Both the position numbers and the translations under genes were made by a program. 64,000 bases of DNA, from positions 160,001-224,000 of the forward strand of contig BK006934.2 in NCBI GenBank assembly GCA_000146045.2, in the 5' to 3' direction. Below are positions 51,979 through 57,834 of this stretch, piece by piece (positions within the stretch are counted from its first letter, which is position 1; each line of letters starts with the position of its first letter). Below the pieces are notes generated by a model. It did no database searches, had not been told where the DNA came from, and was given only the letters and a program-made list of their open reading frames with translations. This DNA is from TPA_inf: Saccharomyces (Eukaryota).

Positions 51979-52534
51979 TTTGTTTCCTCCTTATCTATCT
52001 TTTCTCTCATTTTTTTCTTGTGAAGAAAAAAATTTGAATTTCATAGAGTGCGGTGCATATGTATATATCTATATATGTTTGAAGTGTATATTAAAAATAA
52101 AGTCATTATTTGAATATTGGTTTCTCGGTCTAAGAGCTTATACGTTTTAGACTGATCTGTTGTACTATCCGCTTCAAATAAATAGATCATTGAAAGTGAC
52201 GGGGATAACAGCATTTTACCTTTAAAAGACGTTCTCATAATACATTTTAGGATTAATACATATGCTTTTTTTTTATTCGAAATCTGGGGATTCTATACAG
52301 AGTTGTAAGTTAGGCAAACTAGAATTTGGTAATAATATTTTATTCTTGGGGCGACATATGGAGATACTTTATTTCCTTTTCTTAATTATTAACGTATACC
52401 TATAAATTAACAAAGTATCTAAACAAAATACATAAGTGTACTCAAACTGAGTAGAATCGTCGATTAAACTTCCTTCTCCTTTTAAAAATTAAAAACAGCA
52501 AATAGTTAGATGAATATATTAAAGACTATTCGTT

Positions 52535-52720
52535 TCATTTCCCAGAGCAGCATGACTTCTTGGTTTCTTCAGACTTGTTACCGCAGGGGCATTTGTCGTC
52601 GCTGTTACACCCCGTTGGGCAGCTACATGATTTTTGGCATTGTTCATTATTTTTGCAGCTACCACATTGGCATTGGCACTCATGACCTTCATTTTGGAAG
52701 TTAATTAATTCGCTGAACAT
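52535..52720 (-). CDS. CUP1-1: Copper metallothionein (61 aa)
   Basis: MFSELINFQNEGHECQCQCGSCKNNEQCQKSCSCPTGCNSDDKCPCGNKSEETKKSCCSGK, with 12 Cys in C-x-C and C-x-x-C arrays. Confidence 0.97.
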   Translation of the reverse strand: MFSELINFQNEGHECQCQCGSCKNNEQCQKSCSCPTGCNSDDKCPCGNKSEETKKSCCSGK

Positions 52721-52884
52721 TTTATGTGATGATTGATTGATTGATTGTACAGTTTGTTTTTCTTAATATCTATTTCGATGACTTCTATATGATATTGCAC
52801 TAACAAGAAGATATTATAATGCAATTGATACAAGACAAGGAGTTATTTGCTTCTCTTTTATATGATTCTGACAATCCATATTGC

Positions 52885-52995
52885 GTTGGTAGTCTTTTTT
52901 GCTGGAACGGTTCAGCGGAAAAGACGCATCGCTCTTTTTGCTTCTAGAAGAAATGCCAGCAAAAGAATCTCTTGACAGTGACTGACAGCAAAAAT
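52885..52995 (-). promoter_or_regulatory. CUP1 UAS: clustered T-rich GCTG/CAGC Ace1(Cup2) copper-responsive elements, plus an Hsf1-type HSE (TTCtaGAA at 52942-52949)
   Basis: Repeated TTTTTGCTG and CAGCAAAAG elements and cTTCTAGAAg are read directly upstream of CUP1-1. The same block recurs at +1998. Confidence 0.75.
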
Positions 52996-53184
52996 GTCTT
53001 TTTCTAACTAGTAACAAGGCTAAGATATCAGCCTGAAATAAAGGGTGGTGAAGTAATAATTAAATCATCCGTATAAACCTATACACATATATGAGGAAAA
53101 ATAATACAAAAGTGTTTTAAATACAGATACATACATGAACATATGCACGTATAGCGCCCAAATGTCGGTAATGGGATCGGCTTA

Positions 53185-54532: not shown

Positions 54533-54718
54533 TCATTTCCCAGAGCAGCATGACTTCTTGGTTTCTTCAGACTTGTTACCGCAGGGGCATTTGTCGTCGC
54601 TGTTACACCCCGTTGGGCAGCTACATGATTTTTGGCATTGTTCATTATTTTTGCAGCTACCACATTGGCATTGGCACTCATGACCTTCATTTTGGAAGTT
54701 AATTAATTCGCTGAACAT
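54533..54718 (-). CDS. CUP1-2: Copper metallothionein, second copy (61 aa)
   Basis: Identical 61-aa product to CUP1-1, at +1998 bp. Confidence 0.97.
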   Translation of the reverse strand: MFSELINFQNEGHECQCQCGSCKNNEQCQKSCSCPTGCNSDDKCPCGNKSEETKKSCCSGK

Positions 54719-54882
54719 TTTATGTGATGATTGATTGATTGATTGTACAGTTTGTTTTTCTTAATATCTATTTCGATGACTTCTATATGATATTGCACTA
54801 ACAAGAAGATATTATAATGCAATTGATACAAGACAAGGAGTTATTTGCTTCTCTTTTATATGATTCTGACAATCCATATTGC

Positions 54883-54993
54883 GTTGGTAGTCTTTTTTGC
54901 TGGAACGGTTCAGCGGAAAAGACGCATCGCTCTTTTTGCTTCTAGAAGAAATGCCAGCAAAAGAATCTCTTGACAGTGACTGACAGCAAAAAT
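54883..54993 (-). promoter_or_regulatory. CUP1 UAS, copy 2 (Ace1 sites and the HSE at 54940-54947)
   Basis: Sequence identical to the 52885-52995 block. Confidence 0.75.
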
Positions 54994-55182
54994 GTCTTTT
55001 TCTAACTAGTAACAAGGCTAAGATATCAGCCTGAAATAAAGGGTGGTGAAGTAATAATTAAATCATCCGTATAAACCTATACACATATATGAGGAAAAAT
55101 AATACAAAAGTGTTTTAAATACAGATACATACATGAACATATGCACGTATAGCGCCCAAATGTCGGTAATGGGATCGGCTTA

Positions 55183-57834
55183 CTAATTATAAAATGCATC
55201 ATAGAAATCGTTGAAGTTTGCCGTAGTAATACCCAGATTATCAGATTCCAAATCCTTGTCAATAATTATACTCCTTTGGACAACTTCTCTTTCCATTAAA
55301 AAATCTGAAATCTCCTTAAATTTTAAATAGATTCTGTTCAGTTCACTAACGGGGAATTTCAAGAGAACATTTTTGTTCTTCGCCGACTGACTATAATCTG
55401 TAACATTATTGTTATCAGAGTTTCTCGCAAAATTTTGTTTTTTCTTGCTAAATCTCAGCATATATTTAATCAGATTCAAAACCTTGTTGAAACCTTTAAT
55501 AGATTTGAAACTTCCGTTGCTATTCATTTCATCTCGTAAAAAGGATACGATAATTTCTATTTTTTTTAAAATTTCCAAAATCTTGTCATGAATCAATAGC
55601 AATTGAACATTAATCTCCTCATTTGAAAGATTTTTGTAAAATTCGTCATATAATATTACTTCACAACGTTGGAAAATAGCAAATGTGATTGCTATAAAAT
55701 TCTGTAAGATTTCAATAAAATGATTTGCGAATAAAAATTCTTTACCATTAGAATGAAAGCGATTATTGCCGCTTGAAAATGACTTTATCGACTTTATGGG
55801 GAAGATAAAATTAAATGTTATTGAGTAAAAAATGTGCATATTAGAAATAATTTTCATCAGATCCTTTGCACATCTTTCAGAGTTCGAGGTCTTATTGTTG
55901 TTAGAAGAATGTTGAACTGCCATGGACAAAGAGGATTCGTTTTGAACAAAAAGGAAAAAATTTGTATAAACAATGGTATTGATAAAATTTAAAGTGTCTT
56001 TCCATTCTTTTCTGACTTCGTTGTCATGAAAATATAAGTCTACTGTATTACTCACGCCCATAGTCAAGGTTTCTAACAGACTTTCAATTTTGGTTAAATT
56101 TACTGGCAAGTAGAAAGGAACACCTTGCAGAATATTTATCAATTTTGCTTGCGTTTCCAGTAATTTTAAATCGTTAGCAATTAAAGGAATGTCGTTCGTA
56201 TCAATAGAGGCAGGTATCGGAGATAGGTTTTCAGCAGCGGGTACCATGAATGAAGACTGACCTAGAAGCGAATGTCTTGAGTAATACATTTTTTTCAAAA
56301 AATGGAATAACTTGAAATCTTTTATCTGGAAGCTTAACAGACAGCTCAAATCTTCGTCTAAACTTGATTTATGATCATCATGCATGTACAGAGATTCATA
56401 AAATTTTGTGATGGCAATAAATTTGATTGTCTCTTGGTCATAATATTCCAGGTTTATCAATGTGATTTGGCTTCGAATCAACCTCAAATTATTCATTAAT
56501 GCCGAAACATGGTTATTAATAGCCTGCTTATTGAATAGGGTCATTGAATCGTTTAACAACAGTAGAAGCACAGTTAATTCGCCTAGTTTGGTCAGTTGAG
56601 ATAAAGGAAGATCGACCGTTGAGAATGAAGGACAGGTATCACCATTTGGAAAAGAGTTATGAACAAATTCTAGTAAGAGGGTTTTGTCAAAGATTGGCAA
56701 AAATTCTTCAATATTCAGATTGTTAAGGGATTCAGAGTTTAGTGTCTCAATAATTATTGCTTTTGGTGGGAAGTTAACTTTGCAAACTTCCATATATTGT
56801 TGGTGATTTTTATTGTTAGGAGGACTTACTTTGAACTGATTAATATGGCAGATATCGTGCAAAATATTATAGAACTTGAAAAGATAATGATCTCTAAAAA
56901 TGATGAAGTTTTTAGTGAAAAGGTAGTTGGGGGTATCCTTCAACGGTTTCACTTGGACTAAACTTTGCACATCTGTTATTGTGAGCGCTGTAAAGTATTT
57001 TTGTGAGGACTGAGAAGTCCTTGAAGTCTGATGATCAAATCCGGCTCTTTTACCGTCAACCTTGCCTTTCTTAGAATTCTCACCTGTTTTGTTAATTTTG
57101 TTTGCCGTGGTATTGTCGGCATTTAAATTCGATTTTTCTTTCAAACTTTTCAGTTGCAAGCTTTGTAAATCAAGCAATTTGTTTTTTAAAAAGTCTATCT
57201 CCTTGATTAATACTTCCTCTTGAGTAAACGGAGAAGTCATTAGATCGAAAACGGCCGAGTCTTGATTGATACCAACATTAAAAGAGTATGGGTTATCTGT
57301 ATAGTCAAAACTTTGAGCGTTAACCAGTTGTAATCGTGTGTTATATTCTCTAATCTGATCCATGGAGGGCACATCTGGACTATCGCTTCTCACAATAGTG
57401 TTTCCATGAACATTACTACTAACGGTACTACTATTCTGACGAGGAGCAGTATTATTATTGGTGTTATTATTCTGGTAGCTAGCGGCCTTGGTCCACTGCA
57501 TCGCAGTATCCACAGAGGGGTTGAACGAGAAGTTGAATGCCTCTATCGACGTTTGCATAATCGGATACTGCGTTTGAATCATTACGTTTTTCTGATTTAC
57601 ACCGTTTCCCTGACTAAAATGGTTGGAACCTTGGCCATTGCCGTGCGTGGACATCCCGGACGCAGAGGGCACAGCGACCATCTTACCAGGTCCATCTGGA
57701 TAAAAACAGTCCGGCTTGTTATACTTGACGCAATTCCCACATATCGGTTTTGCCCTGTCGCACCCGATCTTTCTCTTCCTGCATTGGGTGCAAGCAGGCG
57801 GCTTCCTCACTTTTCTCACTTGCATGTCCATCAT
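55183..57834 (-). CDS. RSC30: RSC chromatin-remodelling complex Zn2Cys6 subunit Rsc30 (883 aa)
   Basis: N-terminal Zn2Cys6 cluster (CTQCRKRKIGCDRAKPICGNCVKYNKPDC). The start is placed at MMDMQVRK. The C-terminal 354 aa lie inside CUP1 repeat unit 2. Confidence 0.88.
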   Translation of the reverse strand: MMDMQVRKVRKPPACTQCRKRKIGCDRAKPICGNCVKYNKPDCFYPDGPGKMVAVPSASGMSTHGNGQGSNHFSQGNGVNQKNVMIQTQYPIMQTSIEAFNFSFNPSVDTAMQWTKAASYQNNNTNNNTAPRQNSSTVSSNVHGNTIVRSDSPDVPSMDQIREYNTRLQLVNAQSFDYTDNPYSFNVGINQDSAVFDLMTSPFTQEEVLIKEIDFLKNKLLDLQSLQLKSLKEKSNLNADNTTANKINKTGENSKKGKVDGKRAGFDHQTSRTSQSSQKYFTALTITDVQSLVQVKPLKDTPNYLFTKNFIIFRDHYLFKFYNILHDICHINQFKVSPPNNKNHQQYMEVCKVNFPPKAIIIETLNSESLNNLNIEEFLPIFDKTLLLEFVHNSFPNGDTCPSFSTVDLPLSQLTKLGELTVLLLLLNDSMTLFNKQAINNHVSALMNNLRLIRSQITLINLEYYDQETIKFIAITKFYESLYMHDDHKSSLDEDLSCLLSFQIKDFKLFHFLKKMYYSRHSLLGQSSFMVPAAENLSPIPASIDTNDIPLIANDLKLLETQAKLINILQGVPFYLPVNLTKIESLLETLTMGVSNTVDLYFHDNEVRKEWKDTLNFINTIVYTNFFLFVQNESSLSMAVQHSSNNNKTSNSERCAKDLMKIISNMHIFYSITFNFIFPIKSIKSFSSGNNRFHSNGKEFLFANHFIEILQNFIAITFAIFQRCEVILYDEFYKNLSNEEINVQLLLIHDKILEILKKIEIIVSFLRDEMNSNGSFKSIKGFNKVLNLIKYMLRFSKKKQNFARNSDNNNVTDYSQSAKNKNVLLKFPVSELNRIYLKFKEISDFLMEREVVQRSIIIDKDLESDNLGITTANFNDFYDAFYN

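Follow-up and report, generated by a model that had tools for sequence, protein, structure and literature searches.

The right-hand part of a 64,000-nucleotide stretch of Saccharomyces DNA (contig BK006934.2 of assembly GCA_000146045.2, positions 160,001 to 224,000 of the forward strand; hereafter the window, with position 1 as its first letter) holds two head-to-tail copies of a unit that carries the metallothionein gene CUP1 and ends inside the gene RSC30. The locus raises the questions of how such an array was founded, how many units it has in the strain, and what is to be made of the piece of RSC30 copied with each unit. It is almost certain that the region is the CUP1 locus of S. cerevisiae chromosome VIII in its S288C reference form with two 1998-bp Type 1 repeats, and that the array is accounted for by a single founding event followed by homologous changes in copy number. 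Nothing contradicts the identification of the locus. CUP1 counts among the classic models of adaptive gene amplification and of environment-stimulated copy-number change, and the structure of the locus is already known, all of it being found in Zhao et al. 2014 (PMC4232551). The additions made here are minor: two T runs of different length mark the outer edge and the internal junction, the Type 1 units are nearly free of substitutions across nine other assemblies, and broken open reading frames (ORFs) in long-read assemblies are probably artefacts. The repeat structure, junction anatomy, gene identities, promoter motifs, cross-assembly unit identity and variable copy number were determined here. 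The S288C copy number of 13-14, the end-joining origin, the replication origin, the RUF5 RNA, the unstable transcript and the transcription-stimulated copy-number change were taken from the literature.

Repeat units and junctions

An offset scan of the window for exact runs at spacings of 1980-2020 bp showed that positions 52266-54253 are identical to positions 54264-56251 at an offset of 1998 bp, over 1988 bp and with 0 mismatches. At the other offsets of this range the longest exact run was at most 14 bp, and a repeat search gave the same 1998-bp spacing. Tandem Repeats Finder returned no match, but its longest period is 500 bp, so that this result has no bearing on a 1998-bp repeat. A chance origin is impossible because the repeat is exact over 1988 bp. 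Thus, the description given in an earlier note on this DNA, two essentially identical 1998-bp units arranged head to tail, is borne out, and the offset scan gives a period of 1998 bp and undiverged copies. The span assigned to the locus in that note, 52264-57834, is also correct, since it begins with the first base that the units share and ends with the start codon of RSC30. The 1998 bp are the period of the array. If the count starts at the shared GC, the length of the left unit is 1991 bp, owing to its nine T where the second unit, of 1997 bp, has sixteen. The units and their edges are as follows.

52264-54254, minus strand: CUP1 Type 1 repeat unit 1, centromere-proximal, starting with GC and T9 and ending with the junction-specific A at 54254; identical to unit 2 over 52266-54253.
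54255-56251, minus strand: CUP1 Type 1 repeat unit 2, starting with GC and T16 and ending where the homology stops within RSC30; the unit recurs in other assemblies.
52266-52274, plus strand: T9 run at the outer left edge, the ancestral run of the CIC1-CUP1 intergenic region.
54243-54280, plus strand: J1 junction, consisting of the RSC30-derived GGTACCATGAAT, an A, GC, T16 and ATTCGAAA of the CIC1-CUP1 intergenic region; it matches the published junction (PMC4232551).

The left edge of the array reads ATATGC, T9 and ATTCGAAA, with T9 at 52266-52274. The internal junction reads GGTACCATGAAT, an extra A at 54254, GC, T16 at 54257-54272 and again ATTCGAAA. At the right edge, GGTACCATGAAT passes directly into GAAGACTG (ATGAAT followed by GAAGAC), the last repeated base being 56251. 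Within the RSC30 coding sequence this base has position 1584 and is the last of codon 528. The repeat boundary thus lies within the RSC30 ORF, as had been proposed, and the last unit runs on into full-length RSC30. Long A or T homopolymers are plentiful in the window, reaching A22 at 27030-27051, and because of this richness the T16 of J1 is unexceptional in length.

The same anatomy has been published. Zhao et al. 2014 (PMC4232551) described a 1998-bp "Type 1" repeat whose junction J1 has one extra A and seven extra T, with YHR054C as the end of RSC30. Comparison with the Type 1 repeat of S288C/W303 (Fogel and Welch 1982; Karin et al. 1984; Zhao et al. 2014, PMC4232551) showed that the window matches in its 1998-bp period, in the composition of J1 (RSC30 internal sequence, the A, seven extra T and the CIC1-RUF5 intergenic sequence) and in its gene order: every unit holds CUP1 and YHR054C, the distal end is formed by complete RSC30, and two units are drawn as in the reference. 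Two further details from that paper fall into place on the window coordinates. The insertion site named "VIII212898 in RUF5" maps to window position 52898, in the CUP1 upstream region, and the primer pair VIII211849/VIII216603 spans 4754 bp here, which after subtraction of one unit gives 2.7 kb, as published.

Genes of the units and their surroundings

The gene content of the units was established from ORF translations, Pfam matches and exact-sequence look-ups.

52535-52720, minus strand: CUP1-1 (YHR053C), 61-aa copper metallothionein; ORF, PF11403 match and exact match to MTCU1_YEAST.
54533-54718, minus strand: CUP1-2 (YHR055C), identical to CUP1-1; ORF and repeat identity.
53185-54249, minus strand: YHR054C, 354 aa, equal to RSC30 residues 530-883, a 5'-truncated remnant made by the junction; exact match to NP_011921.1.
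55183-57834, minus strand: RSC30 (YHR056C), full length, 883 aa; ORF, exact match to NP_011923.2 and a Zn_clus domain at residues 14-47.
52519-52692, minus strand: YHR052C-B, a 57-aa ORF in the +1 frame over CUP1-1; full-length PF23530 match, E = 2.4e-41.
54517-54690, minus strand: YHR054C-B, twin of YHR052C-B over CUP1-2; ORF twin.

The two CUP1 copies encode identical 61-aa products. The product contains 12 Cys in 61 aa, arranged as CQCQC, CSC, CPC and CC (Cys-X-Cys or Cys-X-X-Cys), matches all 39 positions of the PF11403 profile (E = 2.9e-25; score 89 bits, curated cut-off 25) and is exactly the S288C protein MTCU1_YEAST. The 883-aa product of the RSC30 ORF is exactly the S288C Rsc30p (NP_011923.2). 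It carries a Zn2Cys6 cluster (PF00172) only at its N-terminus, at residues 14-47. In the RSC structures 6k15 and 6v8o the RSC30 chains have the identical sequence; this Protein Data Bank sequence search gives the presence of Rsc30 in the cryo-electron microscopy entries of RSC and does not tell which residues are modelled. The 3' 1069 nt of RSC30 (55183-56251) are part of repeat unit 2. The statement that both units give the same CUP1 and RSC30-fragment translations is correct, the 61-aa pair being identical and the 354-aa ORF equalling RSC30 residues 530-883. The domains of the neighbouring ORFs fit the known gene order, with an L1-family protein upstream and a cyclophilin downstream.

The 57-aa ORF YHR052C-B overlaps CUP1 almost wholly on the same strand. 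Detection of its peptide by proteomics has been reported, yet the ORF has been proposed not to be an independent gene (PMC12157680).

Copy number in the strain

The two units of the window could be the array as it stands in the strain, rather than a longer array that was collapsed in the assembly. A natural strain with two units, YJM978, is listed in Table 1 of PMC4232551, where the tabulated strains have 1-18 copies of CUP1, and exactly two units were also found in some of the assemblies fetched here (loci L002 and L012). However, these two loci come from a short-read-era assembly and may have been collapsed as well. The origin of the window bears on the same point. Three proteins, including the strain-variable Rsc30p, match the S288C RefSeq proteins exactly, and the window coordinates equal the chromosome VIII coordinates of SGD minus 160,000, as seen from the primer and insertion names in PMC4232551. 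For S288C, 14 units were determined by Southern blotting (PMC4232551), and 13 units were reported for BY4741 (PMC5486974); both papers state that the reference shows only two. A literal two-unit array in this strain is therefore extremely improbable, and the suspicion that an assembly with two copies under-represents the array is upheld by the published counts. The window matches the reference representation, not the real 13-14-unit array, and it shows no difference from the published Type 1 repeat otherwise. Reference-style assemblies should be read with care, since they reduce the array to two units.

Type 1 units in other assemblies

For comparison, 20 loci were fetched from 14 public S. 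cerevisiae assemblies, which were chosen for encoding exactly the same YHR054C or CIC1 protein. The Type 1 arrays in these loci have 2, 4, 4, at least 6, about 10 and at least 16 units, and in GCA_947370305.1 the far side of the array is not yet reached at about 32 kb from the RSC30 end. The genes around the array in other assemblies include COX5A-family, Nramp and Med6 genes. Forty-six Type 1 units from nine other assemblies were compared with the window unit as reference. No substitution was found in 43 of the 46 units; the remaining three, all from locus L003, have 1 or 2.

The junctions are equally constant. The same A, GC and T run is present at every internal Type 1 junction detected in the fetched loci. 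The internal run is T16 in all assemblies with units of exactly 1998 bp (L001, L002, L004, L012, L014 and L018), and reads 12-16 in assemblies that also show scattered homopolymer indels. At the left edge the run is T9 throughout the sampled Type 1 arrays; the single-copy locus L017 and the arrays of 1161-bp and 1454-bp units have T10. Locus L017 combines this T10 with one CUP1 gene and an intact site of the RSC30 breakpoint. On these comparisons, the T9 or T10 is the ancestral intergenic run surviving at the outer edge, and the extra seven T appear to be a fixed mark of the founding junction that all internal units have inherited. The earlier note had spoken of a variable T homopolymer at the junctions. 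Its lengths, 9 and 16, are correct, but the variability from junction to junction is not, because T9 is the outer edge and T16 is the internal junction, so that the two positions are not equivalent.

In the long-read assemblies GCA_947370585.1 and GCA_947370305.1 (L005, L007-L009, L015 and L016), shortened or split gene calls affect many copies of YHR054C, some of CUP1 and one of RSC30, with lengths of, for example, 52, 114, 179-329 and 738 aa. These ORFs are probably homopolymer consensus errors, since the units show no substitutions and homopolymers of 4 or more bases contain or adjoin 176 of the 184 indel columns. For the short YHR054C-like proteins (179-329 aa, 90% cluster), an origin in other repeat types or through ORF decay was considered and rejected, as the proteins belong to Type 1 units with 0 substitutions and homopolymer indels. 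Such consensus errors inflate the apparent diversity of the YHR054C-like protein cluster, and the breaking of YHR054C and CUP1 ORFs by homopolymer indels calls for caution in the use of long-read assemblies.

Some of the fetched loci carry units of other sizes. Locus L006 has an 885-bp CUP1 unit (about 11530-12415 in the minus-strand orientation of the window), whose junction joins window-equivalent positions 55253 and 52368. Its CUP1 copy carries single-nucleotide polymorphisms, including a change of the stop codon from TGA to TAA. Locus L011 (10689-12328) has a 1454-bp unit whose junction contains a 177-bp filler of nearly all A/T. Both sizes are absent from the five types of Zhao et al. 2014 (PMC4232551) and may be assembly artefacts. 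Two arrays are mixed within a single chromosome: in L018 (10689-18506) a 1639-bp unit precedes three Type 1 units of 1998 bp, and L006 has one 1998-bp and one 885-bp unit. The mixed composition points to recombination between arrays of different origin.

Promoter and non-coding features

Each unit carries a complete CUP1 promoter, since the CUP1 intergenic region lies entirely within it. The features assigned to this region are as follows.

52896-53037, minus strand: upstream activating region of CUP1-1, with five Ace1/Cup2 sites and a heat-shock element (HSE); consensus scan and the layout given in preprint 10.1101/2022.04.04.486947.
54894-55035, minus strand: upstream activating region of CUP1-2, identical to the copy in unit 1; consensus scan.
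52414-53115 (approximate), plus strand: RUF5-1, non-coding RNA antisense to CUP1-1; placed from the published descriptions only (PMC4232551, PMC4856073).
53186-53196, minus strand: best match to the consensus of an autonomously replicating sequence (ARS), TTTTATAATTA, with 1 mismatch to WTTTAYRTTTW; weak motif evidence.

The Ace1/Cup2 consensus HTHNNGCTGD has 58 matches across the window against 52 expected, showing no overall enrichment. However, five matches lie within 142 bp upstream of each CUP1 copy, and nowhere else in the 64 kb do 3 or more matches fall within 150 bp. Among the Ace1 sites lies a gap-type HSE, TTCTAGAAGCAAAAAGAG, on the minus strand at 52932-52949 and 54930-54947. The HSE pattern GAANNTTC has the wrong polarity; the correct gap-type pattern, TTCNNGAA-N7-GAR, gives one match per unit. 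A TATAAA is found 142 nt before the CUP1 ATG. These positions agree with the claim of a complete copper-responsive and heat-shock upstream activating sequence (UAS) in each unit, with five matches to the Ace1 consensus and the HSE. In the preprint 10.1101/2022.04.04.486947, UASd and UASp hold Cup2 elements and UASd also one HSE. The copper inducibility of CUP1 is known from the literature (same preprint; PMC5486974).

Antisense transcription across CUP1, which the earlier note had raised, is documented as RUF5 and as a copper-induced upstream unstable transcript (PMC4232551, PMC5486974, PMC4856073). RUF5 begins about 150 bp into the repeat and stops about 70 bp before the YHR054C 3' end (PMC4232551); its second copy was placed about 1998 bp rightward of RUF5-1. 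ARS810/811 are drawn between the CUP1 promoter and the YHR054C 3' end, where the consensus match at 53186-53196 also falls, and the ARS of the repeat is described as putative or weak (PMC4232551, PMC5486974, PMC8789084).

The RSC30 fragment YHR054C

As a consequence of the right-hand break within RSC30, the final 1069 nt of this gene are present in each internal unit. The first in-frame ATG of this piece opens the 354-aa YHR054C, and only the last unit runs on into intact RSC30. The ATG corresponds to Met530 of RSC30 and lies 5 nt inside the junction; the N-terminal peptide is MVPAAENLSPIPASIDTNDIPLIANDLK. The creation of a 5'-truncated, 354-aa C-terminal fragment by every extra unit is thus confirmed by the exact match of 53185-54249 to NP_011921.1. 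Pfam gave no domain match on the fragment, which is without the Zn2Cys6 cluster and so is no Zn2Cys6 regulator by itself. Its only sequence that is distinct from RSC30 is the 5' end spanning J1. The fragment had also been called promoter-less. It does lack the RSC30 promoter, but the full claim is an inference, as CUP1 lies upstream on the same strand, with its stop codon 283 bp away, and an A16 tract lies 7 nt before the ATG.

Read-through from CUP1, or a cryptic promoter at the A16 tract, might express YHR054C, and the RSC30 piece would then be a functional part of the amplicon that acts by copy number, for instance through titration of Rsc3. Both the window and all assemblies with exact 1998-bp units have the ORF intact, although an intact ORF is uninformative when the units are homogenised to 0 substitutions. 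Rsc3 and Rsc30 form a stable heterodimer, according to the part of PMC2628386 that cites Angus-Hill 2001, and a fragment without the DNA-binding Zn cluster has the architecture expected of a dominant-negative form. However, an in-frame stop within the junction sequence, 8 codons upstream of the ATG, means that YHR054C is not translatable as an extension of an upstream ORF. In the literature searched for YHR054C, no transcript, protein, phenotype or functional study was found, the search for expression or read-through returning mostly irrelevant papers, and YHR054C has been proposed as a dubious gene remnant, 'REMYHR054' (PMC12157680).

The arrays of other unit types bear on this question. Mapping of their junctions onto the window coordinates showed that the 1161-bp unit retains 11 bp of RSC30, the 1639-bp unit 29 bp (left breakpoint within CIC1 at 51575), the 885-bp unit 71 bp and the 1454-bp unit about 152 bp. 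Types 2-5 of Zhao et al. (1.8, 1.2, 1.9 and 1.6 kb; PMC4232551) share the core of CUP1 and its promoter with Type 1, and likewise go back to a non-homologous join between a break to the left of CUP1 and one at or within the RSC30 3' end; Types 2 and 4 are not among the loci fetched. Their breakpoints differ, and the long (354-aa) RSC30 ORF remnant is found only in Type 1. Arrays of Type 3 (1.2 kb) confer copper resistance comparable to that of Type 1 (Table 1, PMC4232551). Thus, the 354-aa ORF is a consequence of where the Type 1 break fell and is not needed for the formation or function of an array, because the other unit types mapped keep 11-152 bp of RSC30 and Type 3 resists copper.

From these sequence comparisons, YHR054C appears to be a functionless by-product of the junction and not a gene. 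A dosage effect of the Rsc30 fragment, which the earlier note had considered, is without support in the papers found and is the less likely because independent CUP1 arrays keep almost no RSC30. An expressed fragment that acts through its copy number is very improbable. Its specific form, in which CUP1 read-through or initiation at A16 in copper would yield YHR054C mRNA and a Zn-cluster-less fragment from about 12-13 internal units, competing with Rsc30 for Rsc3, is more improbable still. If it held, the activity of the RSC remodeller would be coupled to copper exposure and CUP1 copy number, only in strains with Type 1 arrays.

Origin of the array and change of copy number

Each unit forms a self-contained copper-resistance cassette, in which CUP1 is accompanied by a complete promoter responsive to Ace1/Cup2 and Hsf1. 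Each unit has also been placed with the RUF5 antisense RNA, the upstream unstable transcript and a weak replication origin (PMC4232551, PMC5486974, PMC8789084). The array would have been founded once, by a homology-free join between one break in the CIC1-CUP1 intergenic region and another at RSC30 codon 528; the founding junction J1 carries one extra A and seven extra T. The breakpoints are without homology in Zhao et al. 2014 (PMC4232551), where unequal end joining at broken forks was proposed. Subsequently, homologous events between units, namely break-induced replication at stalled forks and unequal sister-chromatid exchange, would change the copy number. Transcription from the copper-induced bidirectional promoter would stimulate these events, which would also keep the units identical. 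Additional units give more metallothionein and a higher copper tolerance, and copper selects for more copies.

Published work supports several of these steps. The copper-induced CUP1 promoter is bidirectional, the unstable transcript crosses an upstream fork-stalling site, and the activity of the promoter stimulates copy-number change that depends on acetylation of histone H3 lysine 56 (H3K56ac; Hull et al. 2017, PMC5486974). The origin in each repeat has a role in copy-number change (Whale et al. 2022, PMC8789084). The published account is the best supported, and a single origin with homogenisation agrees with the same A, GC and T run at all internal junctions and with the 43 of 46 units that are free of substitutions.

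Support for parts of this account is weak or indirect. The zero divergence between the units would fit a recent origin and ongoing homogenisation alike. Rfam at the gathering threshold found no family in the whole window and thus none for RUF5, and the ARS-consensus scan gave only matches with 1 mismatch, too weak to place an ARS. Sequence next to or within YHR054C was suggested to modulate the CUP1 promoter (Badi and Barberis 2002, as relayed in preprint 10.1101/2022.04.04.486947). If this suggestion holds, the DNA of the fragment may not be wholly inert.

The ribosomal DNA (rDNA) of S. cerevisiae has a 9.1-kb unit in about 150 copies, with the bidirectional promoter E-pro and a replication fork barrier, and serves as a model of how copy number is changed in a regulated way. 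Like CUP1, it is arrayed in tandem, every unit holding an ARS, with a bidirectional promoter beside a fork-stalling site, and its copy number changes via replication-linked recombination (an analogy drawn in PMC5486974). In contrast to the rDNA, the CUP1 unit is 2 kb long, is transcribed by RNA polymerase II and has no Fob1 barrier.

Other features of the window

A tRNA scan of the whole window found no tRNA gene. A second tandem pair is formed by two 246-aa ORFs of HAD-family hydrolases, presumably DOG2 and DOG1, at 32805-33545 and 34068-34808 on the minus strand, 1263 bp apart and 92% identical. All 19 differences between them fall in residues 1-100, and residues 101-245 are 100% identical, a pattern that looks like gene conversion of the 3' part.

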